The notes: generated from the letters alone by a model not told the origin. DNA of 62,070 bases from a virus (IMGVR_UViG_3300034063_001003:1-62070); one strand, 5' to 3'; shown: positions 22,269 through 55,735, numbered from the stretch's first letter. Made by a program: numbers and translations.

Positions 22269-25200
22269 ATGCAAGACGAACTCTCGCCCTATCAGCTCAA
22301 CACCGACCCTATGTCGGAGCCTATTGACTTGAACGCGGAGCAGCCGCTGCCGCAGTTCGCTGAGGGCGGGGAAGTCATGCAAGAGCCTGAGGAGCCGGAC
22401 TCCGAGGGCTACTACCGGCAACTGCTGGCCCAGTACGCCGGCTACGGCGCGCCGCCGCAAGCACCAGTGCAGTCCTTTGCCAAGGGCGGCTCCGTGAGCC
22501 TTGATGCGATGAGCGCGCTCATTGACGCGAGCGAGCCGCAGACTGAGGACGAGGCGACGGCCGACTACCTGTCGCAGTCGCAGCGCATGCTCGAGAACCT
22601 CGGTCCGCGGACCAGTCCTCGTCAGGCCACCGGCATGCGCCGGGTGCTGGCGCCCTCTGGTGGTGGCGCGGCGTCTCCGAAGGAGATGGAGTTGGCTGCC
22701 GGACCGCTGGCCACGGGCCAGGACTTTGCGATCAAGGAGCCCAAGGCGAAAGGCAAGGGCAAGGCGGGCAAGTCTGCCAAGGAGCAGTTGCAGGCTTTGG
22801 CCAGGCAGTACAAGCTCAAGCTGCGGGCGACGGAGAACGAGTCGCGTGGGCTGATGCGCTCGACGCTGGGCGCGCCCACATTGGAGCAGCCCACCTTGAC
22901 TTCGGAGACGCTGGGCGTGCGCCGGTTCCAGAAGGGTGGTGAGGCAAAAAAGTCTGAGGGGCAGGAGCTGCGGTCCCCTGAAGAGCAGCCGGTGACCGAA
23001 GAGTCCAGCGCCTCGCGGGCGCTCAAGTCAATGGTCTCTCCTGTCATGGAAGGCCTGCGTGGTTACGCGGGCCTTGAGCCGAGCGCCTCTGGCAGTGACG
23101 CGTATCGCACTGGCCAGGCCTTGGGCAACATGCCTGGCGTGGGCGTGCCTGGGGCGCTGGCGGGCATCTTCATTGGCAAGGGCGCCAAGGGCTGGAACGC
23201 GGCTTCCAATGCCTTGGCCCAGAAGATGACCAAGCAGGGTGCCGCGCCTGAGGAGGTTTGGAAGGCGACGGGCAACTTCAAGGCGCCGGACGGCATGTGG
23301 CGCCAGGAGATATCGGACGCAGGCGCGACGATTCGCGAGTCTGTTCTTCAGGGTCGGGCGGAGCGAGTGCTGTCGCATCCGGAACTCTTCGCAAACTACC
23401 CCGAGCTGGGCAAACTGTCGACGATTGTGAACCCACGGTCAATCAACAGCGCACTTGTTGGTGGTGCAGAACCAGGTGCCGTGATCACTGTCGGTGGGGC
23501 CTTGGGAAAAAACGCAGGGGCGAAAGGCATGCTTCACGAGCTGCAGCATGCAATTCAGTTCAAAGAAAATTTCGGCCAAGGCGGGTCAAAGGCCCTGGCC
23601 TTTACTGACCCCCAGGCGTTTGAAATTTTAAAGACGGTCCGGGCCCGAATGGCTCAGCCCGTGTCGGCAGAAAAGTTTGCCAAGGAGGGTTGGCAAAGTG
23701 ACGTGGTGACACCAGAGATTGCGCAGAATTACCAGAAATATCTGAACCACCACAAGAAAAATTTGACCCGCATGGACAAGGCAGCTCAGCAAGCTGCTGC
23801 GGAGGAGTATTACATGAGGCTTCTGGGCGAGGCCGAGTCGCGAGCCGTTGAACTCCGTAAGGACATGCCATGGGACAAACGGCTTCAAGTCATTCCCTCG
23901 CAAAGTTACCGTATGAATGATGGCCGGGACATCATCCCGCTGGACAAGCTGATCGTCAAGCGCGCCGAGGGCAGTCCCAAGGAAGGCGAGGTCAGTGACG
24001 CGGAGATGGAAGCGGCCAGCCGCCCGGCCTTTGTCACGCCCAAGTCAGGCAAGGGCCGCAAGCGCGGTCCCATCAGCGATGCGCTCAACACCGGCTCGGC
24101 GTACGTGGCCGCGGCCAAGGGAGCGTCGGAGCTGCCCTACGACATCGCCGGCGCACCGGTGGACATTGCCACGATGGCGCTGCGCCCCCTTGGCTACAAC
24201 GTCGACAAGCCTGTCATGGGCAGCGACTGGATCAAGGAGAAGATGACGCGCGCGGGCGTGCGGCAGGCGCCTCCTGAGGACCCGACGGCCAAGGGCTTTT
24301 ACACGGCTGGCGAGCTCATGGCCAACGTAGTCAACCCAGCGGCGGCAGTGCGCAGCGGGGTCCGCGGTGCGCAAAGGGTTGGCCAAGCAGCGCGGAGCGC
24401 GGCCCAGGACTTCCAGCAGTACAACCGCCAGTTGGACGTGCCCGGTGCGTCGTACGCCGTGCGGCCCATTGGCAGCACCATGCTCACGGGTCCTGTGGGC
24501 CACGATACCGACGTCAGCGAGATAGATCACATTCTGCGGCAGGGAAGAGACAGTGCGCGTAGCGTGGCGGGACAAAACGTTGAACAAGAAGAGCTGATTA
24601 AAAACTTCTGGGACGTAAAAGCTCGCAACTTTTTTACGCGTCAATTTGGAACGCCAAATGACCCCATTGCCGCGGCTATTTCCAAGAAGCAAATCAAAGG
24701 CTCGGCTTTGGACAAACTTTTCCCTGGATACATGATTGACCAGCTTTCAGTGGGCAAGACGCGCGTAAACGATCAGGGACAAGAACGCTTTTTCCCCAAG
24801 TACCCGCAAGCCATGGAAGACTTTACAAGTCGTTATGACCAGGCCACCGGCATTAAAGGCGGCCTGCTTACCCGCAACCCTGCTGCCTCTGAAAAAGACT
24901 ACACCTCGCTCAGCTCCGAGGGGCGGGCCATAGGCAGTGCCGCGGAGGAGTCAGAGGCGGACAGGATGTTGATGCAGGGCATGAGGCCTGAGCTGATTAA
25001 CGCAAGGGTGGGTGCGGTCACGCGCTCTTTGAAAGACCCTGCCCGCGTTATTGGAGACGGACCTAGTTCAACCAAAGACCTGTACCTGGCCTATGAGGAT
25101 TTATTGGCTTACGACAAGATGACGCCTGAGCAGAAAACAGCGTGGGCCAGCAACGAGTTTGGTAGAGGACGCAAGTTGCACGGCATGGACGAGGCGGAGG

Positions 25201-25925
25201 TCGGCAGGGGCTTTATGGGGGAAAACGTGCGGGCAGCCATTGAAAAGGGCGAGCCAATCTACGACGTCGGTTACATGGGCCGAGAGCTCAAGACGCTGTT
25301 CAACGCCGAGAACATCAACACCTATCTGTCAGGCCTGTCTCCCAGAGAACTTGCCAACATCCGGTTTGAAGACGCGGTACGAGGGGGCCTCAAGTTTGGG
25401 GACCGGGCCTCAGAATTTGAAAAAATACACGAACGCATTAGGGCGAACAAGCCCGTAGCCGACACAGTGTACTCAAACGGTGTGAGCGCTCCTTTACTGC
25501 AGTTTGGCGAGGGCTCAGGCCTTGATGGATTTGCTTGGAAGCGCATCGAAAAGCGCGAAGCCACCGTGCCTGAGGGGGCGTACGTAGGTCACTCTGTTGC
25601 AGGATATGAGCTGGGCGGCGTGGGGTACACATCCGACAAGCGCAACGGTTTCAACACTGGCAAGTGGCAAATATATACTCTACGTGACAACAGGAATAGG
25701 CCCGTCAACACAATTGAAGTGCGCATGGAAAATACGGGTCCGGTGGTCACGCAAATTAAGGGCAACGGCCGAGCCACAGGCAATACGGCCCCGGAGAAAT
25801 ACGACCAAGGAGTGCTGAGCTTCTTGCAAAACTACCTCAAGCCTATCAGCATTGCGGAGTCGGACACGTACCTCACCCCGCTGTTACAGTCCTATCGGGA
25901 TCAGCTCAAGACCGCTCGGCCATAA
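22269..25925 (+). CDS. Large polyvalent protein: LPD23-like plus HExxH zincin plus C-terminal PcfJ-like domain
   Basis: IFIG...VWKATG.FKAPDGMWRQEISD; LHELQHAIQ...YMRLLGEAESR; EG..VGHSVAGY...IYTLRD...TIEV...QIKGNG. Confidence 0.7.
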   Translation: MQDELSPYQLNTDPMSEPIDLNAEQPLPQFAEGGEVMQEPEEPDSEGYYRQLLAQYAGYGAPPQAPVQSFAKGGSVSLDAMSALIDASEPQTEDEATADYLSQSQRMLENLGPRTSPRQATGMRRVLAPSGGGAASPKEMELAAGPLATGQDFAIKEPKAKGKGKAGKSAKEQLQALARQYKLKLRATENESRGLMRSTLGAPTLEQPTLTSETLGVRRFQKGGEAKKSEGQELRSPEEQPVTEESSASRALKSMVSPVMEGLRGYAGLEPSASGSDAYRTGQALGNMPGVGVPGALAGIFIGKGAKGWNAASNALAQKMTKQGAAPEEVWKATGNFKAPDGMWRQEISDAGATIRESVLQGRAERVLSHPELFANYPELGKLSTIVNPRSINSALVGGAEPGAVITVGGALGKNAGAKGMLHELQHAIQFKENFGQGGSKALAFTDPQAFEILKTVRARMAQPVSAEKFAKEGWQSDVVTPEIAQNYQKYLNHHKKNLTRMDKAAQQAAAEEYYMRLLGEAESRAVELRKDMPWDKRLQVIPSQSYRMNDGRDIIPLDKLIVKRAEGSPKEGEVSDAEMEAASRPAFVTPKSGKGRKRGPISDALNTGSAYVAAAKGASELPYDIAGAPVDIATMALRPLGYNVDKPVMGSDWIKEKMTRAGVRQAPPEDPTAKGFYTAGELMANVVNPAAAVRSGVRGAQRVGQAARSAAQDFQQYNRQLDVPGASYAVRPIGSTMLTGPVGHDTDVSEIDHILRQGRDSARSVAGQNVEQEELIKNFWDVKARNFFTRQFGTPNDPIAAAISKKQIKGSALDKLFPGYMIDQLSVGKTRVNDQGQERFFPKYPQAMEDFTSRYDQATGIKGGLLTRNPAASEKDYTSLSSEGRAIGSAAEESEADRMLMQGMRPELINARVGAVTRSLKDPARVIGDGPSSTKDLYLAYEDLLAYDKMTPEQKTAWASNEFGRGRKLHGMDEAEVGRGFMGENVRAAIEKGEPIYDVGYMGRELKTLFNAENINTYLSGLSPRELANIRFEDAVRGGLKFGDRASEFEKIHERIRANKPVADTVYSNGVSAPLLQFGEGSGLDGFAWKRIEKREATVPEGAYVGHSVAGYELGGVGYTSDKRNGFNTGKWQIYTLRDNRNRPVNTIEVRMENTGPVVTQIKGNGRATGNTAPEKYDQGVLSFLQNYLKPISIAESDTYLTPLLQSYRDQLKTARP

Positions 25926-25934
25926 GGAAAGCAC

Positions 25935-28268
25935 ATGCCAATCGACAAAGCACTTAACCGGGCGCCCGTTCTGGACGTCGTAGTGGGCCTACCAGAGCCT
26001 GAGATGGACATTGAGGTGGTCATCGACGAGGACGGAGGCGCCACGGTTGAGATCGGCGGGGACGAGGCCGACGAGGTCGACTTCTACGCCAACCTGGCAG
26101 AGGTCATTGACCCTGACGACCTGGGCAGAATTGCCCTTGACGTGAGCGCTTTGTTCGAGGCAGACAAGGGTTCGCGCTCCGATTGGGAGCAGATGTACGC
26201 CAAGGGCCTTGATCTGCTGGGCTTGCGCATGGAAGAGCGCACAAAACCCTTCCGCGGGGCCTCTGGCGTGGCCCATCCGATGCTCACCGAGGCCATCGTG
26301 CAGTTTCAGGCGCAGGCATTCAAGGAGCTTTTGCCCGCCGGCGGACCTGTTCGCAGCCAAATCGTGGGCAAAGAGACGGTGGAGAAGTACCAGCAGTCCA
26401 CCCGCGTGCAGGACTTCATGAATTACCAGATCACAACGGTGATGGAGGAGTACACACCGGAGTTTGATCAGCTACTTTTCTACACCGGCTACGGCGGATC
26501 GACCTTCAAGAAGGTCTACTACGACTACCAACTGGGCCGGATGGTGTCAAAACTGTGTTTGGCCGACGACGTGTACATCCCGTACAACGGTTCGAGCGTC
26601 ATGAGCCAGTGCGCGCGGATCACGCACCGCATTGCGATGGACTCCAACGACTTTCGCAAGCGCATTGTGGCCGGCGAATACCTCGATGTCAGGGTTGACA
26701 CCGCCGCATCGCCTGCCGATCCCAGCCAAATCAAGGAAGCGGTCGACAAAGCGATCGGAGTGCAGCCCACGGACGACATCGGCGAGGTCTTTTTGCTGGA
26801 GATGATGGTCGATTTGGACATTCCAGGCTTTGAAGACAAGGACGAGAACGGGGAGCCCACCGGAATCAAGCTGCCGTACGTTGTCACGCTGGCCGAAGAC
26901 ACGTTGCGGGTTGTCGGAGTGCGCCGAAACTGGCGCGAAGAGTCGAAAAACAAGCAGCGCAAGAACTATTTTGTCCACTACGTGCTCGTGGAGGGCCCGG
27001 GCGCGTACGGATTGGGCTTTGTGCATCTCGTTGGGGGCCTTTCTAAGGGCGCAACGAGCGCCTTGCGCCAGTTGATCGACGCTGGCACGCTCGCAAACCT
27101 GCCGGCAGGCTTCAAAGCCAAGGGCGCGCGGATCGCGGACGACTCCACGCCCATCCAGCCGGGCGAATGGCGCGACATTGACGCTGGCGGCGCGGAACTT
27201 TCGGCCTCGCTCATGCCGCTGCCGTACAAGGAGCCCAGCCAAGTGCTCTTTAGCCTGCTTGGCTTCCTCGTGGACGCCGGAAAACGGCTCTCCAGTACCG
27301 CGGACATGCAAGTTGGCGACGGCAACCAATACGCACAGGTCGGAACGACCCTGGCGCTGCTCGAGCGCGGCTCCATGGTCATGTCCAGCATTCACAAGCG
27401 CATGCATTACGCGCAGACGCTGGAGTTCAGGCTGCTGTTTGAGGGCTTTGGCACCTTCTTGCCCGACGAGTACCCCTACGAGGTCCCTGGCGCGTCCCGG
27501 CGCGTCAAGAAATCGGACTTCAACGACATGGTGTCGGTGTTGCCGGTGGCCGATCCCAACATCTTCAGCACTGCGCAGCGCATTCAGCTTGCTCAGATGC
27601 AGTTGCAGCTCGCGCAAAGCGCCCCGAACATGCACAACATGTACGAGGCCTACTACCGCGTGTATGCGGCGCTCAACGTGCGCGACATCGACGGCATTTT
27701 GATGCCGCAGAACACGCAAAAGCCCAACGACCCGGCCTCAGAGAACGGCGACGTGCTCAACGGCATGCAGCTCAAGGCGTTTGCCGGCCAGCAGCACGAC
27801 GCGCACATCGCAGCGCATCTGATGATGGGCCTGTCGCCTATCCTGCAGTCCAATCCGATGTCAGCCATGATGCTGCAGCGCCACATCCTTGACCACGTGC
27901 GCCTGAAGGCCGAAGAGGACGTCGAAGCCGAGCTCTTCAAGCTCTACGGGGTGGACCCGGACCGCATGATTTCTCTGATCCAGAAAGAAGGCATGGTTGC
28001 GCTCAAGATCGCGCAGTACATGAAAGAAGTTCGCGAGATGCAAGACGAGCTTGCTGGCGGTGGCGGCGAAGACCCGCTGATCGCGCTCAAGCAGCAGGAA
28101 TTGCAGCAGCGTGCGCAGAACGACCAGGCAGATAACCAGATTGACCAGCAGCGCCTGGCACTGGATCAGCAACGGCTGCAGCAGAAGACGGCGCTCGACC
28201 AGCAGCGCCTGGCGTTGCAGATGAACAAGACCCAGCAACCACCTCAGGGAGTACGCAATGCCGCTTAA
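25935..28268 (+). CDS. Portal protein
   Basis: Follows TerL; HPMLTEAIVQFQAQA, GSTFKKVYYD, LRQLIDAGTLANLPAGFK motifs. Confidence 0.9.
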   Translation: MPIDKALNRAPVLDVVVGLPEPEMDIEVVIDEDGGATVEIGGDEADEVDFYANLAEVIDPDDLGRIALDVSALFEADKGSRSDWEQMYAKGLDLLGLRMEERTKPFRGASGVAHPMLTEAIVQFQAQAFKELLPAGGPVRSQIVGKETVEKYQQSTRVQDFMNYQITTVMEEYTPEFDQLLFYTGYGGSTFKKVYYDYQLGRMVSKLCLADDVYIPYNGSSVMSQCARITHRIAMDSNDFRKRIVAGEYLDVRVDTAASPADPSQIKEAVDKAIGVQPTDDIGEVFLLEMMVDLDIPGFEDKDENGEPTGIKLPYVVTLAEDTLRVVGVRRNWREESKNKQRKNYFVHYVLVEGPGAYGLGFVHLVGGLSKGATSALRQLIDAGTLANLPAGFKAKGARIADDSTPIQPGEWRDIDAGGAELSASLMPLPYKEPSQVLFSLLGFLVDAGKRLSSTADMQVGDGNQYAQVGTTLALLERGSMVMSSIHKRMHYAQTLEFRLLFEGFGTFLPDEYPYEVPGASRRVKKSDFNDMVSVLPVADPNIFSTAQRIQLAQMQLQLAQSAPNMHNMYEAYYRVYAALNVRDIDGILMPQNTQKPNDPASENGDVLNGMQLKAFAGQQHDAHIAAHLMMGLSPILQSNPMSAMMLQRHILDHVRLKAEEDVEAELFKLYGVDPDRMISLIQKEGMVALKIAQYMKEVREMQDELAGGGGEDPLIALKQQELQQRAQNDQADNQIDQQRLALDQQRLQQKTALDQQRLALQMNKTQQPPQGVRNAA

Positions 28269-28530
28269 AAAGGGTTCAAGTCAGAAGACGATCAGCTCCA
28301 ACATTGGCGAGATCGTGCGCGACTACAAGAAAGACGGGATGATTGGCACCAGCAAGCCAAAGAGCAAGGCTGCCGCTGTCAAACAGGCCGCGGCAATTGC
28401 CTACGACAAAGCAGGCAAGTCGCGCAAGATGGCCAAGGGCGGCGACGTCATCAAAAAGGCCAAGGGCGTGCAGGGCCCGTCGATGATTGTGAAGAAAAAG
28501 GACGGTAACCGTCCGGTGAAGATATACTGA
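28258..28530 (+). CDS. Small basic protein (MPLKKGSSQKTISSNI family)
   Basis: Lys-rich; QAAAIA; contains MAKGG. Confidence 0.7.
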   Translation: MPLKKGSSQKTISSNIGEIVRDYKKDGMIGTSKPKSKAAAVKQAAAIAYDKAGKSRKMAKGGDVIKKAKGVQGPSMIVKKKDGNRPVKIY

Positions 28531-28540
28531 TCCTCACCAA

Positions 28541-28803: not shown

Positions 28804-29274
28804 ATGGAAGTCGAAACTGCACCGGTCGAAATGACCGCACTTGAGCGCAAATGGGCCGAACAGGCCGCGACCAAGGCACCCGCCTTGGACGATGCCTACA
28901 CGGAGCTGGGGTTTGACCCCGAGAAGCTTCATGAGTCCGTTGTTGACACCATCCCCAAGCCCACCGGCTGGCGGATCGCCATCCTGCCTTACCGCGGCGC
29001 TGAAAAAACCAAAGGCGGCATTGTCCTGGCGGAGGAGACGCAGCGTAAAACGCAGCTTGCCACCGTGTGCGGATATGTCCTGAAGGTGGGTGACCTGGCG
29101 TACGCGGACGAGTCTAAATTTCCCTCCGGCCCCTGGTGCAAAGAAGGTGACTGGATCATCTTCGGTCGCTACGCGGGCGCGCGAATTCCAATCGACGGCG
29201 GGGAAATTCGCCTCATCAATGACGATGAGGTGCTTGGCGTGGTCAACGACCCTGAAGACATTCTGCACATGTAA
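28804..29274 (+). CDS. groES: GroES-like co-chaperonin
   Basis: PTGWRIAI...TKGGIVL...VLKVG...GDWIIFGRYAG...RLINDDEVLGV. Confidence 0.9.
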   Translation: MEVETAPVEMTALERKWAEQAATKAPALDDAYTELGFDPEKLHESVVDTIPKPTGWRIAILPYRGAEKTKGGIVLAEETQRKTQLATVCGYVLKVGDLAYADESKFPSGPWCKEGDWIIFGRYAGARIPIDGGEIRLINDDEVLGVVNDPEDILHM

Positions 29275-29285: not shown

Positions 29286-30209
29286 ATGGCGGATCAAATG
29301 GACCTACAGTTCAAAATTGGAGAGGACGAGCAGCCTGCTGCCGTCGAGATTAACGAAGAGGGGAAGGCGGAGCTGCTGGATCAGCCGCAGGACCCGGCGG
29401 TAGACACCTCTGGCGGCGCGGAACATCGCAGCGAGGTTGACGACTACAGCGAGAACGTCAAAAAGCGCATCGACAAGCTCACCGCCCGCCTGCGTGAGAC
29501 CCAGCGGCGCGAGCAGGCCGCCTTGGACTATGCGCGCAACGTGCAAGCCCGGGCCCAACAGCTCGAGCAGCAGTACTTGAGCACCGATGGCCAGCGCGTT
29601 GCCGAGGCGCAAAGCCGCATCGAAACCCAGAACGTGGCCCTCAAGCAGATCATCCGCAAGGCCCGTGAAGAGGGAGACGTGGACACCGAGACTGAGGCCA
29701 TGCAGCGCCTGGCCCAGTTGACCAATGAGCAGAGCACCATCCAGGCCCAGGCAGCTCAACGCGAGGCCTATCAGCAGCAACTTGCCGCTCAGCAGCAGGT
29801 GGCCCAGCAGCAGGCTCAACCGGCTGCGCAGGCTCCCCGCCAGATCGACCCCAGGGTCGAGGATTGGGCGGAACGCAACCCCTGGTATGGCCGAGATACA
29901 GCCATGACCCACGCTGCGTGGGGCATCCACAAACAACTTATTTCCGTCGAGGGATTTGACGCCAGCTCGGATGAGTATTATCATGAGCTCGATCGCAGGA
30001 TTCGTGAAACCTTCCCACAGAAGTTTCAGCAGAATGCTGCGCCCAACCAAAACAGGCCACAGCGAAACGTGCAGGCTGTGGCACCTGCTTCCCGGTCATC
30101 CGGGGTATCAAATGCACGCCGCACTGTCAAATTGACGCCAAGTCAAGTTGCAATTGCCAAAAAGCTGGGCGTTCCGCTTGAGGAATACGCCAAGTACGTG
30201 AAGGAGTGA
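29286..30209 (+). CDS. Capsid scaffolding-like protein
   Basis: Acidic N-terminus, long coiled coil, C-terminal VKLTPSQVAIAKKLGVPLEEYAKY. Confidence 0.7.
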   Translation: MADQMDLQFKIGEDEQPAAVEINEEGKAELLDQPQDPAVDTSGGAEHRSEVDDYSENVKKRIDKLTARLRETQRREQAALDYARNVQARAQQLEQQYLSTDGQRVAEAQSRIETQNVALKQIIRKAREEGDVDTETEAMQRLAQLTNEQSTIQAQAAQREAYQQQLAAQQQVAQQQAQPAAQAPRQIDPRVEDWAERNPWYGRDTAMTHAAWGIHKQLISVEGFDASSDEYYHELDRRIRETFPQKFQQNAAPNQNRPQRNVQAVAPASRSSGVSNARRTVKLTPSQVAIAKKLGVPLEEYAKYVKE

Positions 30210-30213: not shown

Positions 30214-30696
30214 ATGAGCGACGTCAAAATACCAACTCTCAGCCGTACCCCGCGCGAGGCCGAATCTCGCGCAAAAAGTACGCGACGTAAGCCGTGGGCT
30301 CCGCCGTCTCGACTTGACGCACCGCCAGCTCCCCCTGGATACAAGCACCGTTGGATTCGGGCAGAGGCAGGTGGGGTAGAAGATCGTACCAATGTGGCTG
30401 GCAAAATCCGTGAGGGTTATGAGCTGGTCCGGGGCGATGAATACCCTGACTACCATGTGCCAACGATTGAAGACGGCCGACATGCTGGCGTGATCAGCGT
30501 GGGAGGTCTCTTGCTTGCACGCATCCCTGAGGAGACTGTTGCAGAGCGTAATGCGCATTACCGAGATCGTGCGAACGACCAATTGCAGGCTGCTGACAAT
30601 GAACTGTTGAAAGCCAATGCTCATTCGAGCATGGTGATCACCAAGCCCACGCGCCAATCTCGCGTGTCGTTTGGTGGCGGTTCACGAGGCAGCTAA
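30214..30696 (+). CDS. Conserved head-module protein
   Basis: WAPPSRLDAPPAPPGYKHRWIR...VGGLLLARIP. Confidence 0.75.
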   Translation: MSDVKIPTLSRTPREAESRAKSTRRKPWAPPSRLDAPPAPPGYKHRWIRAEAGGVEDRTNVAGKIREGYELVRGDEYPDYHVPTIEDGRHAGVISVGGLLLARIPEETVAERNAHYRDRANDQLQAADNELLKANAHSSMVITKPTRQSRVSFGGGSRGS

Positions 30697-31309: not shown

Positions 31310-32215
31310 ATGGCAATTTCCCGCGCACAACTGGTAAAGGAACTTGAGCCTGGCCTGAACGCTTTGTTTGGCCTGGAGTACAAGAACTACGAAAACGAGC
31401 ACGAGCAGATTTACACCATGGAAACTTCGGACCGCGCGTTCGAGGAAGAAGTGATGGAATCTGGCTTCGGCGAAGCTCCTGTGAAGACTGAGGGCGCTGG
31501 CGTCGCTTACGACCAGGCGCAAGAGGTCTACACGGCTCGTTACACCCACGAGACCATCGCTCTGGCGTTCTCGCTGACCGAAGAAGCCGTGGAGGACAAC
31601 CTCTACGACCGTTTGTCGGCCCGCTACACCAAGGCCCTGGCTCGCTCGATGGCTCAGACCAAGCAGATCAAGGCGGCCGCCGTCCTGAACGGCGCTTTCA
31701 CCACCTCGATCGGCGGCGACGGCAAGCCTCTGTGTGCAACCGACCACCCCACCCTGGGCGGTCCGGACCTGCGCAACGAGCTGTCCACCCCTGCTGACCT
31801 GTCCGAGACCTCCCTGGAGCAAGCTCTGATCGACATCGCGGCGTTCACCGACGAGCGCGGCCTGAAGATCGCTGTCCAAGGCCTCAAGCTCATCATCCCG
31901 AAGGAGCTGATGTTCACTGCCGACCGTATCCTAAAGTCCACGCTTCGCGTTGGTACGGCCGACAACGACCTCAACGCCATCCGGAACATGGGCATGGTGC
32001 CGCAGGGCTACGCCGTGAACCACTTCCTGACCGATCCCGACGCGTTCTTCATCAAGACCGACGCGCCCAACGGCATGAAGGGCTTCACCCGTGTGGCGAT
32101 CAAAACCGGCTTCGAGGGTGACTTCGATACCGGCAACGTCCGCTACAAGGCTCGCGAGCGCTACAGCTTCGGCTTCAGTGATCCGCGGGGCATCTTCGGC
32201 TCGCCTGGCGGCTGA
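31310..32215 (+). CDS. Major capsid protein (Mu gpT-like, HK97 fold)
   Basis: MAISRAQLVKELEPGLNALFGLEY...RYKARERYSFGFSDPRG; strongly biased codons; terminator follows. Confidence 0.9.
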   Translation: MAISRAQLVKELEPGLNALFGLEYKNYENEHEQIYTMETSDRAFEEEVMESGFGEAPVKTEGAGVAYDQAQEVYTARYTHETIALAFSLTEEAVEDNLYDRLSARYTKALARSMAQTKQIKAAAVLNGAFTTSIGGDGKPLCATDHPTLGGPDLRNELSTPADLSETSLEQALIDIAAFTDERGLKIAVQGLKLIIPKELMFTADRILKSTLRVGTADNDLNAIRNMGMVPQGYAVNHFLTDPDAFFIKTDAPNGMKGFTRVAIKTGFEGDFDTGNVRYKARERYSFGFSDPRGIFGSPGG

Positions 32216-45277: not shown

Positions 45278-45291
45278 CCGAGGAGCTTAAA

Positions 45292-45489: not shown

Positions 45490-45490
45490 C

Positions 45491-45724
45491 ATGAAGGCTC
45501 CTCAAAAAAGCCTCAAGGACTGGGGCGACCAAAAATGGCGCACCAAGAGCGGCAAAAAGTCGTCCGAAACGGGCGAAAGATACCTGCCTGAGTCCGCGAT
45601 CAAAGGCCTGAGCGCTGCGGAGTACGCTGCAACAACCCGCGCAAAACGCGCGGGCAAAAAGGCCGGCAAACAGTTCGTGGCGCAGCCTAAAAAAATAGCC
45701 AAAAAAACCGCAGGGTACAGGTAA
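45491..45724 (+). CDS. Small basic protein
   Basis: QKSLKDW..QKWRTKSGK.S..TGERYLP. Confidence 0.75.
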   Translation: MKAPQKSLKDWGDQKWRTKSGKKSSETGERYLPESAIKGLSAAEYAATTRAKRAGKKAGKQFVAQPKKIAKKTAGYR

Positions 45725-48751: not shown

Positions 48752-51064
48752 ATGGCGAATGAAGGCATCATGGCGCTGCCCCAAGGGGCAGGCATGCAGG
48801 ACGACCAGGCATCTGAGATGCCTGCGGTGACCAGTTTTGACGCGTACGACGCTGCGCAAACCGCTCTTAAGATGGCCCGGCCGGAGGAGCAGGACATGCT
48901 CCGCCAGGCCCTGCGTGAGAACATGCAGGAGCTGGAGCTGACCCCGTCTGAGCTTGAGCAGCTCATCGAGGTGTTTGAACAGCTCTCCCAACGCCCTGAC
49001 CGTTACAAGCAGATGCGCGAGCAGCTCATCCGCGAGGACATCGTCGACGCTGAAGACATCCCTGAGGAATACGATCCGGAGTTCTTGGGCGCTGTTCTGT
49101 CGGTGCTCAACGAGTTGAAGATGACCTCCATCCAGGGTGCGCAAGCTCCCATGATGGAGGAGTCTCCGATGGAGGGCATGGGAGCGATGCCCATGGCCCA
49201 AGGCGGGTTGGCCGATGTCGCTTCGTACTTGGCCTCTCAAGGGCGCCGCGGCGACACCATGCTCGCGCACATCACGCCAGAGGAGGCACAGCTTCTGCAA
49301 AGCCGCGGCGGCGCGGGCACGATCAACCCAAACACGGGCCTGCCTGAGTTTTTCGTGAAGAAGGTTGCCAAGGCCTTCAAGAACACCGTCAAGCGGGTTG
49401 TCGACGTCACCAAGAAAATTGTCAAGTCCCCCGTCGGTCGAATCCTGATGACCGTTGCATTGGCCACGGTCCTCGGGCCAGCAGGCATTGGCCTGGCCAG
49501 CACCACCGCCGGAGCAGCGGCCCTGGGCAGCGCGGGGGCCACGCTGCTTGGCGGCGGCAACCTCAAGGACGCTCTGATCTCCGGCGCCATGGGCTACATC
49601 GGCGGCGGCGGCACGATCATGGGCACCAACCCCATGGCAGCGGTCGGCAAATACCTGCCGGGCGTCACGGGTTCTGCCCTGAACACCGGCTTGGCCACGG
49701 GCGTCATTGGCGCCGGCTTGGGCAAGCTGGGAGGCATGAGCACGCAAGACGCCCTGCGCATGGGCTTGATGTCCGGCGCTTCCGCGGCGGCTTTGGCCGG
49801 CGTGCGGAACAACACGACCCTGATGGACGGTCGCGTGACCCCGGAAGACCTGCGTCAAAGAGCTCAGGAGGGTTTCAGGAGCGGCGAGATCGCGGCGCAA
49901 AACGCCGCTCAACCAAGTGCTCCGGGTCCTATCGGGACCGCTGCAGACCTCATGTCTCCGGTGGAGTCGCTGAACTATGGCGGCACTGCTCAGGCGGCCA
50001 GGTTCATGCCATTTGAGCCGCAAGGGCAAGGTATTTCTCCCCAGCGCCTAGCATATGACGCCGCGCAACAGGGGGATATTGGCCGTGTCGCGGACTTGCA
50101 GCAAAAGTTCCCCGATAGGATCGTGGGCCGCTATGAGTACGATGCAGGCGGCGGTGCTAGGTCTTATTCAATGGCAACCAGGGACCCAGTAAGCAAGTTC
50201 ACCCAGAGACCGCTGGAATTTAATCCTGCCGCTGGACCTGGCGTCGCGCCAGCGGGTGCCGCGCCTGCGGCCCCGGGGGCGACGGCCCCGTTTCCTTCCG
50301 CCTCTCAAAGCGCCCTGGACCAAATCTACGGAGGGCCTGCACCAGGGGCGGCGACTCCGGGGGCAGTGGCTCCAGGGGCAGGAGAACCGGGCTTTTTTGA
50401 TCGCATGGCCCAAGGCGCCAAGGACTTCTACAGCGAGAACATCTCGCCGAGCCGCCCGGGCCTGCCCAGCGACGTCAGCTTCATTCGCCAGTACGGCCCG
50501 CTTGCGGCAACCGGTTTGGCTGTGGCGGGCGCTGCCGGCGGGTTCAAGAGCAAGCCTGCCGACCAGAATCCGGCGTTCAACCGGGACTACACCGGCATCG
50601 ACTACATGAGGGATAACCCCAGTATGTTCACTGGGGGCCTGGACTCTGGCTATAGGCCGCCTATGGTGCGCCCGCCCATGGTAGATATCCCAACTCCTGG
50701 GTATGCCGCGGCGCCAATGGGCGCCCCAGGAATCTCGGCCCCCGGAGGTTTCAGCCGTAGTCCCGCGGGGATACCGCAGCCCTACAACATGGCGGGCCTG
50801 TACGGAGTGCCCATGTTGTACGGTCAGCCGCAGAGGCTCGCAAAAGGTGGCCAGCCCAAGCCGACGGAGTTCCCGCGCAAGACGGGCCCGATCAACGGCC
50901 CGGGCACGGGCACTTCGGACTCCATTCCGGCCATGCTGTCGGACGGCGAGTTTGTCTTTACCGCCAGGGCGGTACGCAACGCTGGGGGCGGCAGCCGACG
51001 CAAGGGAGCTGCACGCATGTACAAACTCATGAAAAAGCTCGAAGGCGGAGCTGTAAAGGCGTAA
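48752..51064 (+). CDS. Internal virion / ejection protein with tape-measure-like modules
   Basis: MAQGG..GRRGDTMLAHITPEE..INPNTGLPEF; Gly/Ala hydrophobic stretch; LAKGG..GPGTGTSDSIPAMLSDGEFV. Confidence 0.7.
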   Translation: MANEGIMALPQGAGMQDDQASEMPAVTSFDAYDAAQTALKMARPEEQDMLRQALRENMQELELTPSELEQLIEVFEQLSQRPDRYKQMREQLIREDIVDAEDIPEEYDPEFLGAVLSVLNELKMTSIQGAQAPMMEESPMEGMGAMPMAQGGLADVASYLASQGRRGDTMLAHITPEEAQLLQSRGGAGTINPNTGLPEFFVKKVAKAFKNTVKRVVDVTKKIVKSPVGRILMTVALATVLGPAGIGLASTTAGAAALGSAGATLLGGGNLKDALISGAMGYIGGGGTIMGTNPMAAVGKYLPGVTGSALNTGLATGVIGAGLGKLGGMSTQDALRMGLMSGASAAALAGVRNNTTLMDGRVTPEDLRQRAQEGFRSGEIAAQNAAQPSAPGPIGTAADLMSPVESLNYGGTAQAARFMPFEPQGQGISPQRLAYDAAQQGDIGRVADLQQKFPDRIVGRYEYDAGGGARSYSMATRDPVSKFTQRPLEFNPAAGPGVAPAGAAPAAPGATAPFPSASQSALDQIYGGPAPGAATPGAVAPGAGEPGFFDRMAQGAKDFYSENISPSRPGLPSDVSFIRQYGPLAATGLAVAGAAGGFKSKPADQNPAFNRDYTGIDYMRDNPSMFTGGLDSGYRPPMVRPPMVDIPTPGYAAAPMGAPGISAPGGFSRSPAGIPQPYNMAGLYGVPMLYGQPQRLAKGGQPKPTEFPRKTGPINGPGTGTSDSIPAMLSDGEFVFTARAVRNAGGGSRRKGAARMYKLMKKLEGGAVKA

Positions 51065-51067
51065 CCC

Positions 51068-53659
51068 ATGTCAGACCAGACCGTTACCCAATCGATAATG
51101 CGGGAAGCCCCGGAGATTGAAGCGTATAAGCTCAAACTCCTTCAACAGGCGCAGGCCCTTGCCTACAACAACATCATTGATGACAAAGGCAACGTCATCG
51201 GGCAACGGACCCCGCTGGGTGAGCAACTCCCCGCCTATCAAGTAGAGGGGTTTACTGGCCCTCAGACAACCGCGATTAACGCGGCAACGGCCACGGGGGT
51301 GGGGTCCTTCACGCCCTACATGACGGCGGCCAACCAGGCACTGGGCGGCGCCTATGCCACCACCGCCGAGGCCGCTGACATCCTGCGCGGCGCCGACACC
51401 CGGGCGCAGTTCACCGACGCACAGCGGGCCATGCAGCAAGCTGGGGGCGCCACTGCCAACATGGCAGCGGGCCTTGCCCCAATCTCCCAGGGGCTTGGTT
51501 ACCTGGGCACGGCAGGCCAGCGGGCCTTGGCCTCCGACACGTCCGCCCGGTTCAACCCGGCCTACCAAGACATCAGCAGGGGCCTCGGATCGCTGACCAC
51601 GGCCCAGCAGATGGCCGCTCAGGCCAGCCAAGCGGACCTTCGCCCGGCCACTGCGGCCATCGGACAAGGGCTCACGGGCCTGACCGAAGCGCAGCGCATG
51701 GCTGCGATGAGCATGGGCGCGGACCTGTCCGGCTCCCAGGCACTCCTGAGCCAAGCCGCTGGCATGACCGCTGGCGCACGTCCGGACTTTACGGGGGCGC
51801 AAAGCGTCACCATGGGCGGCCTGCAGCAAGGCTCGCTCGCGGCCCAGCAAGCCGCTCTGGCGGCCCAGCAGCCGGGCTTTGGCCAAGCCAACGCCTATCT
51901 GGGCATGGCAGGCCAGACTGCGGCTCAGGCCGGCCCTTCTGACTTCACCGGGGCCATGCAAGGTCTGGGTGGTGCTGGCCAGACGGCCGCGCAGGCTTCT
52001 CAAGCCGCTGCCCAGGCTGCCGCGCAGCCGGGCTTCAACATGGGCGTGTACAACGCCATGACTGCTGCGGAGCAGGCCCGCTTGGCCGCTGCGCAGCCGG
52101 GCTTTGAGACCGCAGGCCGCACGCTCCAGCAGGGCATTGCCCAACTGGGCGGTGCCGCTCAGGGCTACAACCCACAGGCCGCTCAGGCCTTCATGAATCC
52201 GTACCAGCAGCAGGTGATCGACGAGACCATGCGTCAGATCAACCGCCAAGGTGCGATTGCGCAGCAGGGTTTGGCAGCACAGGCCGTGCGGTCTGGTGCG
52301 TTCGGCGGCGAACGCGAGGGCGTTCAGCGTGCCGAGATGGAGCGCAACCTGATGGATCAGCGCGCCAGCACGATTGCCAACCTCCTGTCGCAGGGCTACA
52401 GCCAGTCGCAGGCGCAGGCCATGTCGGCGTTCGAGCAACAGCAGCAGCGCCAGGCGCAGGCTGCACAAGGCATTGGCCAGCTCGGCAGCCAACAGGCTGC
52501 CTTGGCCGCTCAACAGGCTGGTCTTGGCCAAAGCGCCGCGCAGCAGCTCGCGCAAGCCGCGCAGTTGCAGACTCAGGCCGCTGGCCAGCAGGGTCAGTTG
52601 GGCTTGCAGGCCGCGCAGCAGCGGTTCCAACAAGCTGGGTTCGACGCTCAAACGGCCATGCAGATGGCTCAGTTGCAGCAGACCCAACAACAGCAGCAGG
52701 CGCAGCAGTCTCAGTTGCTCTCAGGCATCGGCAGCTTGTACGGTCAGCAGGCACAGGCGCAGGGCGCTCTTGGCCAGCAGGCTGCGCAGACTGCTATGCA
52801 GCAAGCGCAGCTTGGTCTACAAAGCGGTGCCCAGTTGGGACAGTTCGCGGCCCAAGGAGCACAGCTCGGACAAGCCGCCGCAGGCCAGCTCGCCAACATC
52901 GGCCAGACCGTGGGCCAGCAGGCCGCGCAGCAGGCGCAGCTTGGCCAGGCGGCAGCAGGTCTCTACGGCAACCTTGCCCAGCAGCAGATCGCTGGTGGCC
53001 AGGGGCTGGGTCAGCTCGGCGTGCAGCAGGCGCAGCTTGGACAGGGGGCCGCGGGCCAGTTCCTGCAAGCAGGGCAGCAGTACGGCAACCTGGCCTCGCA
53101 GCAAGGCGCGCTAGCCGGACAGGAGTCGGCGATCAACCAGAACATCGCCAACCTCTTGGCTCAGCAGGCGGGCCAGTATGGTCAGATGGGTGGCCAGATC
53201 GCCAATATCTACGGCCAGCAGGGGCAGCAGTTCCAAGGGCTTGGGCAGGGCATCGGGCAGTTGGCCGGGCAGCAGTTTGGCATTGGCCAGGCTCAGGCCC
53301 AGGGCCTCGGTCAGATGGCCGGTCAACTCGGTCAACTCGGCGTGCAGCAAGGCGCGCTGGGCCAGACCGCGCAGGCGCTGCAGCAGGGCGACATCAACTT
53401 CCTGTACAACGTCGGCCAGGCGCAGCAGGCCTTGAATCAGCAGAAGGCAGACGCCGCGCGCGCTAACCAGTTGCAGAAGGTTTACGCCCCGTACCAGCAG
53501 GCAGGCTTCCTGTCGGACATCTACAAGGGTGCACCGTCGAGCCAGATGTCGACTCAGGTGGCCAGCCAGCCCACTGCAAGCCCGTTCCAGCAGGCTGTTG
53601 GCGTGGGCCTCGGCGCGCTGACCACGGCCGCTGGTGCGAAGAAAATGGGACTTTTTTAA
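51068..53659 (+). CDS. Gln/Gly/Ala-rich DNA transfer (ejection) protein
   Basis: FMNPYQQQVID...GAFGGER; long QAQLGQ repeats. Confidence 0.75.
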   Translation: MSDQTVTQSIMREAPEIEAYKLKLLQQAQALAYNNIIDDKGNVIGQRTPLGEQLPAYQVEGFTGPQTTAINAATATGVGSFTPYMTAANQALGGAYATTAEAADILRGADTRAQFTDAQRAMQQAGGATANMAAGLAPISQGLGYLGTAGQRALASDTSARFNPAYQDISRGLGSLTTAQQMAAQASQADLRPATAAIGQGLTGLTEAQRMAAMSMGADLSGSQALLSQAAGMTAGARPDFTGAQSVTMGGLQQGSLAAQQAALAAQQPGFGQANAYLGMAGQTAAQAGPSDFTGAMQGLGGAGQTAAQASQAAAQAAAQPGFNMGVYNAMTAAEQARLAAAQPGFETAGRTLQQGIAQLGGAAQGYNPQAAQAFMNPYQQQVIDETMRQINRQGAIAQQGLAAQAVRSGAFGGEREGVQRAEMERNLMDQRASTIANLLSQGYSQSQAQAMSAFEQQQQRQAQAAQGIGQLGSQQAALAAQQAGLGQSAAQQLAQAAQLQTQAAGQQGQLGLQAAQQRFQQAGFDAQTAMQMAQLQQTQQQQQAQQSQLLSGIGSLYGQQAQAQGALGQQAAQTAMQQAQLGLQSGAQLGQFAAQGAQLGQAAAGQLANIGQTVGQQAAQQAQLGQAAAGLYGNLAQQQIAGGQGLGQLGVQQAQLGQGAAGQFLQAGQQYGNLASQQGALAGQESAINQNIANLLAQQAGQYGQMGGQIANIYGQQGQQFQGLGQGIGQLAGQQFGIGQAQAQGLGQMAGQLGQLGVQQGALGQTAQALQQGDINFLYNVGQAQQALNQQKADAARANQLQKVYAPYQQAGFLSDIYKGAPSSQMSTQVASQPTASPFQQAVGVGLGALTTAAGAKKMGLF

Positions 53660-53668
53660 GAGGTAGCC

Positions 53669-55735
53669 ATGAAAGACAAGATGATGGGCGACGACGACGT
53701 CGAGAACGTCGGAATCATGCAGGGGTTCATGGACTCCATGAGCGAAGACGAGGATGAGGGCGAGGGCGAAGACCAGGATGAGGGCGAGGGCAAGTACCTC
53801 GAACGCCGTCCGGATTCCCCCGAAATCCTCATGAACAACCTGCGCGGGGACATGCGCTCGATCGACGCGCGCCGCGACGAACTGGCCGACATGGTCGGCT
53901 ACGCCGCTGCCACGGAGACCCCCGAGTCCGTGCTCGCGATGCTCCAGCCTATTCTCGCCCAAGGCGGCGGGATTGGCGCGCTGCCCCCTTCACAAGCCAT
54001 GGCCCAAGGGCCACAGCCCCCGATGGCGCCTCCTGGGCCCCAAGGAGCAGCCCCTGGCGGCCCGCCTCCTGGTGCACCGCCCATGGGCCCCGGCACACCG
54101 GGCGCAGAGATGGCGCCTCCCCCTGCGGACGGCGGCATTGCAGCACTCTTGGGCGGCGCCGGCGCGCCCCCGGCAGAAGGTCCGCCGCCCGTGCAGATGG
54201 CCCGCGGCGGCTACGTCCAACATTTTCAAACGGGGTCTGATCCGAGCGGCGTGACCCCTGCTGACGGTACCGCTCGGGAAGACGAGAACATGCTGTACGA
54301 CCCTGCGATGGTCAGCAGTGCCAAAGCAGAAATGAACAAGCTCCTGACGCGGTCCCCTGCCGCTGTGCCAACCCTGACAAAGGCCATGGAGGCGCGTCTG
54401 CCGGAGTACCAGAAGGCGTTGGGCGCTGACAGGAAGCTGTCGGAAGCCCAGATGCTGTTTGAGCTGGGCCAGCGGGCCTTTGGCTTTGCGGCCAACGTCG
54501 ACGAAGGCGGTCGCCCGCTCAAGGGAAGTTTCTTCTCGCGCCTGGCAGGGGCCACCAAGACGCTGCCGACAGCGATGGGCAGGCAATTGGAGGCCATGGA
54601 CAAGATTGACCGCCAGATCAAGGTACTGGCCCTCCAGCAGGGCGAGAAGGACATTGACCAGGTCGTCACCCAGAACAACGAACTGCTCAAGCGCAAGACT
54701 GACATCTTCAAGGACGTCCTGCGCGCTGACGCAAAACTCCAGGCTCAGAAACTCAAGATGGGCGAATCGATCTTCGGCAAGGGCGACTTTGAATGGAACA
54801 TCGTCAACATGCCCGGACTTACCGAGAGGTATGCACAGGGCCTGACCAATCCCGCAGAAGACAAGCTGATGGCTTCTGCCATCATGAAGTTCAAGCTGGG
54901 ACGGCAAGAGCTCAGAATTCACCCTGTCACGAGAATCCCCGACATCGTGCAGGTGCCGGGCGTGCTCCCCGACTTTGTGGCGCAGGCCGAGGCGGCGCGC
55001 AGGAGACTGGGGCTGCCGACAGCGCCGCAACCTGTGATGAACCCCGCGGCAGGGGCGCGCCCTGCTGCTCCGGAAGCGGGTGCCGCGGCTCCTGCCGCAG
55101 TGCCCGCTGGTGCAGCGCCTGCGGCAGGGATGCCCGCGCCTGGGGCTCCGGCGGCTCCGGCTGCAGGTGCGCCCGCAGGTGCGCCCGCAGGTGCGCCCGC
55201 AGCAGGTGCCGCGGCTCAAGGACCACGGCCCATGACGCTGTGGGCCACCCGGACCGATGTAGCGGGCCCAGGCGCGGCGGCGGTTGCCGGCGTGTCAGCC
55301 ATCCCTGGGCTGGGCGACCCTGCATCCTCAGTGACGATGGCACGCAAGAATGCTGAGCTTCTGGCAGAACGCTTGAAGGAGGCCATGCTCAAGAGCGTGG
55401 CCGGCAGTGTCTGGGAACAGAAAAACATCGACAAGGTCATGGCGATCCAGCCAAGCGCGTGGACTGACCCTGACGTGTACGGCACGCGTCTCATTACTCT
55501 TGGCCAGGCGCTTCGCGAGGGGATCGCGTCCTACCAGAAGATGGGGGCCGACAATTCTGGGCTTACTCCAGAGGACAAGGGCAAGGCGCGCGAAAAAGCC
55601 ATGGAGTACCAGAAGTTCCTGGGCCAGATTGGCCTTCCTCCTGCTGCGTACACAATGGAGCAGCTCAATGCTCTGCGCCGGCAAGGACACAGAGAGGTCC
55701 TCTGGCAAGGTATCACGCCCATCAAGCAGAATTAA
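53669..55735 (+). CDS. Internal virion protein
   Basis: Acidic N-terminus, TPESVLAMLQP, Pro/Ala linkers, MARGG motif. Confidence 0.7.
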   Translation: MKDKMMGDDDVENVGIMQGFMDSMSEDEDEGEGEDQDEGEGKYLERRPDSPEILMNNLRGDMRSIDARRDELADMVGYAAATETPESVLAMLQPILAQGGGIGALPPSQAMAQGPQPPMAPPGPQGAAPGGPPPGAPPMGPGTPGAEMAPPPADGGIAALLGGAGAPPAEGPPPVQMARGGYVQHFQTGSDPSGVTPADGTAREDENMLYDPAMVSSAKAEMNKLLTRSPAAVPTLTKAMEARLPEYQKALGADRKLSEAQMLFELGQRAFGFAANVDEGGRPLKGSFFSRLAGATKTLPTAMGRQLEAMDKIDRQIKVLALQQGEKDIDQVVTQNNELLKRKTDIFKDVLRADAKLQAQKLKMGESIFGKGDFEWNIVNMPGLTERYAQGLTNPAEDKLMASAIMKFKLGRQELRIHPVTRIPDIVQVPGVLPDFVAQAEAARRRLGLPTAPQPVMNPAAGARPAAPEAGAAAPAAVPAGAAPAAGMPAPGAPAAPAAGAPAGAPAGAPAAGAAAQGPRPMTLWATRTDVAGPGAAAVAGVSAIPGLGDPASSVTMARKNAELLAERLKEAMLKSVAGSVWEQKNIDKVMAIQPSAWTDPDVYGTRLITLGQALREGIASYQKMGADNSGLTPEDKGKAREKAMEYQKFLGQIGLPPAAYTMEQLNALRRQGHREVLWQGITPIKQN

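Follow-up and report, generated by a model that had tools for sequence, protein, structure and literature searches.

A recurrent Gly-Gly pentapeptide in a subset of late podophage proteins, a possible docking tag for virion-carried cargo

Why do late phage proteins that have little else in common share one short peptide, and what might this peptide do? The question is raised by the virus sequence IMGVR_UViG_3300034063_001003:1-62070 (the window, i.e. the whole stretch of 62,070 bases that was analysed), which represents essentially the whole genome of a podophage with a G+C content of about 60% and nearly all genes on the + strand. An earlier note on this DNA had pointed to 14 pentapeptides of the form [FMYL]-A-x-G-G, or variants of it, in six late proteins: a large polyvalent protein and proteins of 90, 56, 97, 770 and 688 amino acids (aa). 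It had proposed a di-glycine signal that serves either a maturation protease or the loading of cargo into the head. All 14 pentapeptides translate as stated, in frame of open reading frames (ORFs) on the + strand, to which all coordinates below refer. The core observation stands: the recurrent motif is a real, selected protein-level signal that is specific to a subset of late proteins. Its consensus, [F/Y/M]-A-[K/E]-G-G-x-[V/A], appears to be a portable short linear peptide, flexible and often located at a terminus or between modules. As to its role, we tentatively favour a peptide that docks or anchors proteins inside the virion, a reading whose chances we place slightly below even.

Recurrence of the motif in the window and in related phages

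The gene set of the window consisted of 81 proteins obtained by ORF tiling without a gene caller (12,632 aa late, 6,869 aa early); a 56-aa ORF (33948-34118) lies under the 60-aa minimum of the ORF list and was inspected separately. The strict pattern [FMYL]A.GG occurs 12 times in the late proteins, against 2.80 occurrences expected from whole-protein shuffles and 3.33 from shuffles within 30-aa blocks, and a count of 12 was reached by none of 300 shuffles under either control. The early proteins contain no match (0.58-0.67 expected). With the looser form [FMYL][AQK].G[GS] the late count rises to 23 for 8.0-8.4 expected (0/300). Plain GG is not enriched in the late proteins (144 vs 135-143 expected), so that glycine content alone is no explanation. 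It is rather the preceding residue that stands out: F, M, Y or L precedes 12 of the 27 late A.GG sites, the summed background of these residues being 16.6%. This single-genome statistic is not decisive, because the motif was defined post hoc, after inspection of the window, and because an exact-pattern scan of all a-b-x-c-d words was swamped by the tandem repeats of a 503-aa fibre-like protein, which came out on top instead of the motif. The count in the window was regarded as a lead only, and the fixed motif was therefore tested in relatives.

The nearest named relative is the lake phage DSL-LC04 (portal identity 75%). Here, the prespecified motif was found 10 times in late proteins (2.45 expected; 0 of 500 shuffles) and not at all in early ones (0.5 expected), and the copies stand at homologous places. 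We also analysed 160 related IMG/VR loci around the portal and around a 619-aa structural protein, in which the + strand frames were assigned to the families of the window by BLAST. Across these loci the motif is confined to six families, with 1.85-9.25 matches per 1000 residues. Strict matches amount to 77 in 41,542 aa for the polyvalent protein, 22 in 7,723 for the 90-aa, 10 in 1,514 for the 56-aa, 20 in 2,162 for the 97-aa, 98 in 33,894 for the 770-aa and 26 in 13,366 for the 688-aa family. None was detected in the capsid, scaffold-like, GroES-like, 160-aa, 193-aa, adaptor, 619-aa and 236-aa families or in many others, the nozzle-like proteins lack the motif as well, and the few matches in fibres, terminase and other proteins look like chance. 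A family of 145-aa tail proteins has a conserved YAAGGG in a different, folded context. Enrichment by gene class, which had been proposed as a check and was run here and in the relatives, thus limits the motif to the same six late families. The earlier note had not noticed it in replication, capsid or portal proteins; this holds for the early and the capsid proteins (0 matches), whereas the portal contains LAGGG in its C-terminal region (28050-28064). Only 3 strict matches were found in 77 portal sequences of the loci (57,660 residues), they are not conserved, and LAGGG is probably a chance match.

Conservation is also positional. A lack of it had been named as a ground for refutation, yet the Gly-Gly pair is invariant in three family alignments, and the motif blocks are islands of conservation that follow linkers rich in insertions and deletions. 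When 86 homologues of the polyvalent protein were taken from a large protein collection (90% clusters), they yielded 245 strict matches for 18 expected, with a maximum of 29 in 200 shuffles; 82 of the 86 have the strict motif at least once, and all 86 have the extended one. The 346 hydrophobic-x-x-G-G contexts in these homologues show F, Y or M at position 1, A at position 2 (50%), K or E at position 3 (50%), E at position 6 (33%) and V or A at position 7 (69%), and the loci give a similar picture. A matrix trained on the polyvalent homologues only was applied to the other 80 proteins of the window and picked 7 sites of at least 11.4 bits where 0.55 were expected. All 7 fall in the 97-aa, 56-aa, 770-aa and 90-aa proteins; the copy in the 688-aa protein scored under the reporting threshold of 8.

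Could the pattern nevertheless be a chance product of a Gly-, Ala- and Lys-rich composition? Apart from the post hoc definition, such an origin would be in line with the fact that 4 of the 12 strict matches are internal duplications in the 97-aa protein and that MA.GG by itself is not significant among the 160,000 possible gapped words. On the other hand, the shuffles within 30-aa blocks and those of DSL-LC04, the excess in the 86 homologues, the invariant alignment columns and the matrix that carries over from one family to others all contradict it. The objection that Gly/Ala composition explains the frequency was thus put to the test and failed, and we consider a compositional artefact ruled out for practical purposes and chance hardly credible. 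A signal at the RNA level, such as a Shine-Dalgarno-like AAGGNGG within genes, was also rejected. The glycine codons in 219 distinct contexts are ordinary (GGC 61%/53%, GGT 24-25%, GGA 7-10% and GGG 5-15%, compared with an overall usage of GGC/GGT/GGA/GGG of 54/19/12/14%), and the motif is kept in a low-GC relative. Since codon choice at the two glycines is ordinary, selection acts on the protein.

Position of the motif in its carrier proteins

The polyvalent protein (22269-25925; 1218 aa) is encoded between the large terminase and the portal. It is composed of a motif-bearing N-terminal region, a module A (residues ~63-237), a variable cargo slot (~238-560) and a C-terminal module (565-1218). 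FAEGG (aa 30-34; 22356-22370) follows an acidic, Pro-containing leader and is kept in the closest relatives, loci L005 and L007. FAKGG (aa 70-74; 22476-22490) opens module A, and the relatives read F/Y-A-K/R-G-G at this site, followed by an amphipathic stretch. FQKGG (aa 220-224; 22926-22940) closes module A directly ahead of the variable cargo slot; F-x-x-G-G stands at the homologous place in 18 of the 18 relatives listed and is mostly followed by EAKK. RAEGS (23961-23975), which had been counted as a variant copy, is not the motif and instead represents the conserved start of the C-terminal module, where the relative L017 reads ..FKDGG EAKKPDAFFRAEGSP...

That the motif falls at module boundaries, as previously claimed, is borne out by the BLAST segments common with relatives, which start at residues 44-123 (most at 61-70) of the window protein, end at 229-251 (most at 230-237) and restart at 558-566. 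It is likewise borne out by DUF6973, a variable cargo domain that begins 18-25 residues past the motif in 9 of the 9 relatives having it (18 scanned). The cargo slot of the window contains LPD23 (Pfam; aa 300-355, E 3.4e-10) plus an HExxH sequence in place of DUF6973. Among relatives, modules with DUF6973, DUF6884, PcfJ and LPD23 are swapped, and the Pfam content differs across the 86 homologues. The first motif copy lies within the first 60 residues in 65 of them, and 37 have a copy in the last 25 residues, at a quantised distance from the C-terminus of 6 (n = 16), 7 (1), 13 (13), 17 (6) or 20 (1) residues; these C-terminal copies belong to two main tail types. The architecture is that of the polyvalent proteins of Iyer et al. 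2017 (PMC5512222), i.e. large multidomain proteins that combine an LPD domain with a variable effector module and are encoded in the head-morphogenesis block. An inter-module peptide common to small virion proteins does not seem to be described in the main text of that paper; the words 'glycine' and 'linker' have 0 occurrences there (PMC5512222).

Motif copies between polyvalent modules, directly ahead of the variable cargo domain, could be cleavage sites, cut at or past Gly-Gly by a protease of the phage or of the host. Cleavage would free the polyvalent modules, strip leaders from ejection-type proteins and chop small basic precursors into peptides. It has been proposed that polyvalent proteins are processed by metallopeptidase domains that they themselves contain (PMC5512222), and a HELQH (HExxH) sequence is present at ~23530-23560 in the LPD23-containing cargo module, with HEVQH in the relative L030. 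This module may be a zincin-like peptidase, as far as its sequence tells; it gave no peptidase family and no PDB sequence match. Since it is missing from the closest relative L005 and from most homologues, it is not a general processing enzyme. No peptidase family was detected by PHROGs and Pfam at E <= 0.001 in 44 late proteins, and 32 further proteins gave no convincing peptidase at E <= 0.1, nor did NCBIfam find any. A hit of Peptidase_U40 on the scaffold-like protein (E 0.059) remained below the cut-off. These scans agree with the remark in the earlier note that no canonical prohead protease is recognisable, although proteins of unknown fold, e.g. the 160-aa protein, could hide a protease.

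The small carriers bear on the same question. The 90-aa basic protein (28258-28530), whose start overlaps the portal stop and which matches phrog_2423 on residues 1-20, consists of a widespread 57-residue N-terminal domain, the motif and a conserved C-terminal stretch (57-row alignment). Its MAKGG (aa 58-62; 28429-28443) has a matrix score of 13.8, none of 34 sequences, with identities down to 57%, departs from G61 and G62, and distant homologues show F/Y/M-A-x-G-G at residues 58-61. In a profile search, this family reached 1195 clusters (E <= 0.001); of the 150 best cluster representatives, 122 exceed 66 aa, and 26 of these 122 have the motif. In the motif-bearing representatives listed, a copy usually stands straight after the 57-residue domain, and the longer ones have a second copy ~10 residues from the C-terminus.

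Two Lys/Gly/Met-rich proteins are encoded further downstream. The 56-aa protein (33948-34118) contains VKKGG (33972) and MKKGG (34026; matrix score 17.8), and its family keeps K-M-[KA]-K-G-G in a 19-row alignment. The 97-aa protein (34120-34413) has MAKGG at 34228 and 34243 and YAAGG at 34348 and 34384. Two of these copies abut without a spacer, and the last one lies 4 residues from the C-terminus; in its family, hydrophobic-x-x-G-G occurs in the last 20 residues of 18 of the 19 distinct C-terminal tails. The Atlas model of this protein has a predicted local distance difference test (pLDDT) value of 0.24, and the chain is probably disordered. In another small basic family (window 45166-45489), some relatives have an N-terminal extension that ends in YAKGG or MAEGG, which the window copy lacks.

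The 688-aa protein (53669-55735) gave no family match in the PHROG and Pfam scans. It starts with an acidic N-terminus, continues with a long, variable, Pro-rich linker and then enters a motif block, MARGG with the continuation ..YVQHFQTGS (54197-54238). M-x-x-G-G is found in 20 of 20 sequences of a 20-row alignment, and conservation is 0.81 in the motif block vs 0.71 in the linker with its 11% gaps. FQTGS (54224), previously listed as a separate variant, belongs to the conserved 20-residue block that begins at MARGG. Another sequence that fits the strict pattern and had not been listed, LAQGG (53954-53968), is unlikely to be functional: relatives read ..LAQQGGGG.. at this point and do not keep the spacing.

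For cleavage, it can be added that the extension of some relatives ends with YAKGG exactly where the shorter homologue of the window starts its conserved part. Cleavage also has known parallels: core proteins of adenovirus and African swine fever virus undergo GG-X processing, and T4 has gp21. The first two share the di-glycine site, the upstream hydrophobic residue and a set of several virion core precursors that includes small basic, DNA-associated proteins. They differ in that cysteine proteases like those of adenovirus and African swine fever virus were not found here, in that the hydrophobic residue stands five, not four, residues ahead of the putative cut, and in that many copies are too near the termini for cutting to matter. 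LxGG- and MxGG-type sites have the hydrophobic residue at P4, whereas it would be at P5 here. The copies 6-20 residues from the C-terminus in 37 of the 86 polyvalent homologues argue against cutting, because only a trivial peptide would be released. Both flanks are conserved in the 90-aa, 688-aa and 770-aa families, so that the site does not divide a dispensable propeptide from a functional part. Moreover, the second place past Gly-Gly is taken by V or A in 69% of contexts, a constraint not usually seen where a site is read mainly on its P side. Together with the abutting copies and the lack of a detectable peptidase family, this speaks against the protease half of the original inference, and we consider cleavage improbable.

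The 770-aa protein (48752-51064) has a helical N-terminal part, a Gly/Ala-rich hydrophobic middle and a C-terminal block of the tape-measure type. By its sequence it is similar to tape-measure or ejection proteins: residues 695-756 are matched by tape-measure families of PHROGs, and among the tape-measure proteins in the PDB it matches 8rk3_A (JBD30; E 3.6e-5) and 8zdo_S (Douge; E 0.0019). MAQGG (aa 148-152; 49193-49207) opens the conserved block ..GRxGDxxLAHITPEEA..; conservation climbs from 0.54 (aa 124-146) to 0.80 (aa 147-200), and A149, G151 and G152 are the same in all 28 sequences of the family that were aligned. LAKGG (aa 696-700; 50837-50851; matrix score 15.9) lies 16 residues upstream of the GPGTGTSDSIPAMLSDGEF block. 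A697, G699 and G700 are invariant in the same 28 sequences, as is the block GPGTGxSDSIPAxLSxGEF (GPGTGxSDS[IM]..A..S.GEF). The tape-measure proteins of Douge and JBD30 have A-x-G-G at the place corresponding to LAKGG, and Caulobacter phage RW keeps the arrangement of A-x-G-G plus tape-measure block despite the absence of a general enrichment. At its end, the protein carries the tail KLEGGAVKA (51035-51061), a related GG-A-V-K tail in another register (hydrophobic at -2) that resembles the ..KHGGAVKRHA tails of polyvalent homologues. The AlphaFold2 (AF2) model has a mean pLDDT of 42, with both motif copies in coil (pLDDT < 50), a helix at 154-162 after the first copy, and a hairpin and two helices in the tape-measure-type block.

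The stretch ..GRxGDxxLAHITPEEAxLL..GGxGTINPxTGLPEFF (49220-49350) is common to the 770-aa protein and the polyvalent proteins of relatives. In a phage collection, this block was further found in DSL-LC04, Methylophilales phage Venkman and two records of spring-water phages. The earlier description of six unrelated proteins therefore needs qualification: the motif is shared by six families, but the 770-aa protein and the polyvalent proteins of relatives have in common a homologous module that begins with it.

These data allow an explanation without any common partner. The motif might have arisen by convergence or been inherited as a local structural element, in which the two glycines form a flexible hinge, the hydrophobic residue serves as an anchor, and a helix or strand begins. 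It might then recur because the proteins are built from related disordered linkers. Indeed, the residues past Gly-Gly vary by context, the helix 154-162 follows the first copy in the 770-aa model, and part of the recurrence is common descent, given the homologous module of the 770-aa and polyvalent proteins that starts with the motif. As the 145-aa tail protein family keeps YAAGGG in a fold, the pattern can also be purely structural. However, a hinge would hardly account for a matrix from one family that picks out others (7 sites vs 0.55), for the conservation of Ala at position 2 and Lys/Glu at position 3 across families, for the gain and loss of the motif as a unit on different small proteins, or for the fixed distances from C-termini. 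We regard a purely structural element as unlikely.

Docking, anchoring and the alternatives

According to the reading that we favour, the tag would mark those proteins that are most likely inside the virion, i.e. the polyvalent effector carrier encoded beside the portal, several small basic proteins, and two of the four large proteins encoded past the tail genes. The aromatic or Met residue plus the residues past Gly-Gly would bind a common virion component; alternatively, the tagged proteins would bind each other. Binding would co-incorporate and hold the tagged proteins, and new cargo could be recruited by adding the tag. That these proteins are carried in the virion is most likely in view of gene position, the PHROG tape-measure matches and how a relative is annotated; that the motif has a binding partner at all is our inference, as is the nature of this partner. 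Docking is ranked first because the copies are terminal, portable and multi-copy, lie in flexible segments and have both flanks conserved, and because some copies abut and no protease is detectable. The pentapeptide is common to otherwise unrelated proteins, being found in six families and recognised across them by the matrix. It is portable and often terminal, as seen in the N-terminal extensions, the C-termini of 37 of the 86 polyvalent homologues and the distant members of the 90-aa family. Cargo loading or sorting is a plausible role and the better-fitting half of the first interpretation.

Several points weigh against docking. The 863-aa and 1104-aa proteins of the same gene block are without the motif, which is thus not a universal tag of the large-protein block. 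The sequence past Gly-Gly varies by context (a helix-like stretch, an EAKK linker, a hairpin block), so the copies may not share one partner. Because the mean pLDDT of the 770-aa model is so low, disorder of the motif copies is suggested at best. Pelagibacter phage HTVC027P has only 2 strict copies, and the looser form also matches its helicase and terminase. Caulobacter phage RW shares the portal, GroES-like, scaffold-like and capsid genes without enrichment of the motif (late 2 vs 1.6 expected), and a receptor among these core head proteins would have to be clade-specific. A virion proteome of the group was not found in the literature searched, which included the paper on CRP-901 and CRP-902. 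A predicted complex of the capsid, 160-aa and 90-aa proteins scored 0.10 and 0.01, without controls, and speaks neither for nor against binding.

The 160-aa protein (30214-30696) is encoded between the scaffold-like and capsid genes and has an invariant N-terminal stretch rich in Pro, Arg and Trp. Its identity is 63% with DSL-LC04 and 54% with HTVC027P, above the portal's, and no BLAST match was obtained in RW. This distribution makes it the best phyletic candidate for a tag-specific factor. Its AF2 model (pLDDT 64.7) gave no Foldseek match at E <= 0.001 and none above Z 4.1 with VIA-align, and the Atlas returned only viral hypothetical clusters; no family was matched either. A likeness of the motif to the mobile loop of GroES (the phage GroES-like protein reads ..KTKGGIVL..) was considered and judged coincidental, because that loop is defined by a hydrophobic triplet past Gly-Gly, which is not part of the motif.

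A concrete precedent for anchoring is offered by the tape-measure hook of siphophages (JBD30 gp46, Douge gp16). Drawing on T5, the JBD30 authors predict that residues 1022-1066 of their protein fold into two helices and a hairpin, a hook by which the tape measure would be anchored inside the baseplate (PMC11445458); the hook stretch itself was not resolved, and only the last 33 residues were built. In the T5 model, a crevice of the hub protein takes up the C-terminal 43 residues of the tape measure after its cleavage (PMC10038345). The 770-aa protein is alike in the ..LAKGG..GPGTGTSDSIPAMLSDGEF.. match, in the place of A-x-G-G and in the hairpin and two helices of the AF2 model. It differs in that the hook belongs to a siphophage tail tube and baseplate hub, which a podophage is without, and the likeness covers one motif context only. 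No tail-tube family was detected by PHROGs and Pfam among the 44 late proteins, and the adaptor genes are of the SU10 podophage type, so a tape-measure-like ejection protein fits. By analogy, the tape-measure block may thus serve as a precedent for anchoring in one context, which does not thereby establish the pentapeptide itself as an anchor. Cleavage in the course of assembly is known for the tape-measure proteins of lambda and T5 (PMC10038345), a point in favour of the cleavage alternative. The tie to the siphophage tape-measure block hints at a mechanism that is in part older than this clade and more widespread.

A further alternative is that the motif acts only after ejection, as a signal read in the host envelope or cytoplasm that would, for instance, ensure ordered passage through the tail channel or the binding of a host component in the periplasm or at the membrane. 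Substrates of conjugative secretion systems typically carry C-terminal signals, and such a placement would suit this role. The bearers are also of the kinds expected to exit with the DNA, namely polyvalent effector carriers (PMC5512222) and a tape-measure-like protein with a hydrophobic middle. Against this, the motif has no similarity to a known host-binding box, and the small basic proteins have no obvious need for such a signal. We consider a post-ejection role distinctly improbable.

In their logic, the closest kin of the proposed docking tag are the T4 capsid targeting sequence and the encapsulin cargo-loading peptides, and in sequence it is the tape-measure hook region. The T4 targeting sequence is removed by the prohead protease gp21, while no protease is detectable here. 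It is likewise a short conserved peptide that is the sole common feature of diverse internal proteins, it sends its carriers to the prohead and also serves for the loading of foreign proteins (PMC3012670). The T4 signal is, however, N-terminal, has another sequence and targets the scaffolding core (PMC3012670), whereas the tag described here is internal, N-proximal or C-terminal and often multi-copy, and loading is a proposal. Encapsulin cargo-loading peptides are alike in being short, Gly-containing, usually C-terminal and transferable. Their consensus is a different one; encapsulins are not viruses and enclose no DNA, and a docking of the present motif to the capsid protein is hypothetical. 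The encapsulin peptides attach their cargo on the inside of an HK97-fold shell (PMC8346489, PMC11866011). A description of the motif was not found in the phage literature searched, supplements aside. A bolder form of the docking proposal, in which [F/Y/M]-A-[K/E]-G-G-x-V would be a general transferable tag that suffices alone to load any protein into the capsid via one conserved pocket of the head or portal, appears doubtful to us.

Genomic setting and meaning for phage biology

The early part of the genome encodes an AEP-type primase, a UvrD-type helicase and a family A DNA polymerase. The late order up to the capsid is large terminase (20767-22227), polyvalent protein, portal (25935-28268), small proteins, GroES-like protein, a coiled-coil scaffold-like protein (29286-30209) whose function was assigned from its sequence, two conserved unknowns and capsid (31310-32215); terminase, portal and capsid were identified with PHROGs and Pfam. 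Small basic proteins, two SU10-type adaptors, fibres, lysis genes and the 619-aa structural protein follow, and the late block closes with the four large proteins of 770, 863, 688 and 1104 aa. Apart from DSL-LC04, portal identities are 46% with Pelagibacter phages HTVC027P and HTVC023P, 40% with Roseobacter phages CRP-901 and CRP-902 and 32% with Caulobacter phage RW. A Pam3 gp34-like gene (119-988) lies near the start of the window and a Pam3 gp33-like gene (61523-62068) at its end, whereas in other phages the two are neighbours. This arrangement points to a complete, circularly permuted genome in which the break fell between this pair.

Some neighbouring genes deserve mention in their own right. 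The GroES-like protein of the head block (28804-29274; Cpn10, E 7.9e-10) has a 50-residue N-terminal extension and is conserved in DSL-LC04, HTVC027P and RW. A 222-aa Cys/His-rich protein (34413-35081) is encoded among the structural genes and matches a PHROG labelled 'ferredoxin' (E 2.7e-29); its match in HTVC027P lies in the early region of that phage. The 503-aa protein (37482-38993) is made up of ~18 tandem copies of a 22-residue unit (..VTGDANVLPTGVQGTGAVGTVA..) and is probably a fibre or decoration protein. The 863-aa protein (51068-53659) is nearly all Gln/Ala/Gly-rich low-complexity sequence and has no family match. Further small basic proteins (33407-33694, 45289-45489 and 45488-45724) belong to families that are widespread in viruses; the family labels are DUF6321 from Pfam and, as low-score leads only, DUF6496 and DUF5872 from the Atlas. 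They and the tagged small proteins make up a set of basic proteins that are probably associated with the virion.

How tailed phages select the proteins that are packaged in the head and injected with the DNA is known for very few systems. If the bolder form of the proposal held, the tag would serve a large clade of abundant aquatic podophages, relatives of the HTVC023P-type pelagiphages, and its cargo would comprise effector modules, small DNA-associated proteins and channel-forming ejection proteins. It would then be a viral counterpart of the encapsulin cargo-loading peptide that allows plug-and-play swapping of injected effectors. More generally, one short tag common to effector carriers, small basic proteins and ejection-type proteins would explain the exchange of cargo modules in polyvalent proteins. 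It would also provide a sequence marker for internal virion proteins among the unannotated genes of viromes. Finally, a single tag of this kind would open the selection of packaged proteins to direct experiments, in phages that abound in lakes and in the ocean, and might permit the packaging of foreign proteins.

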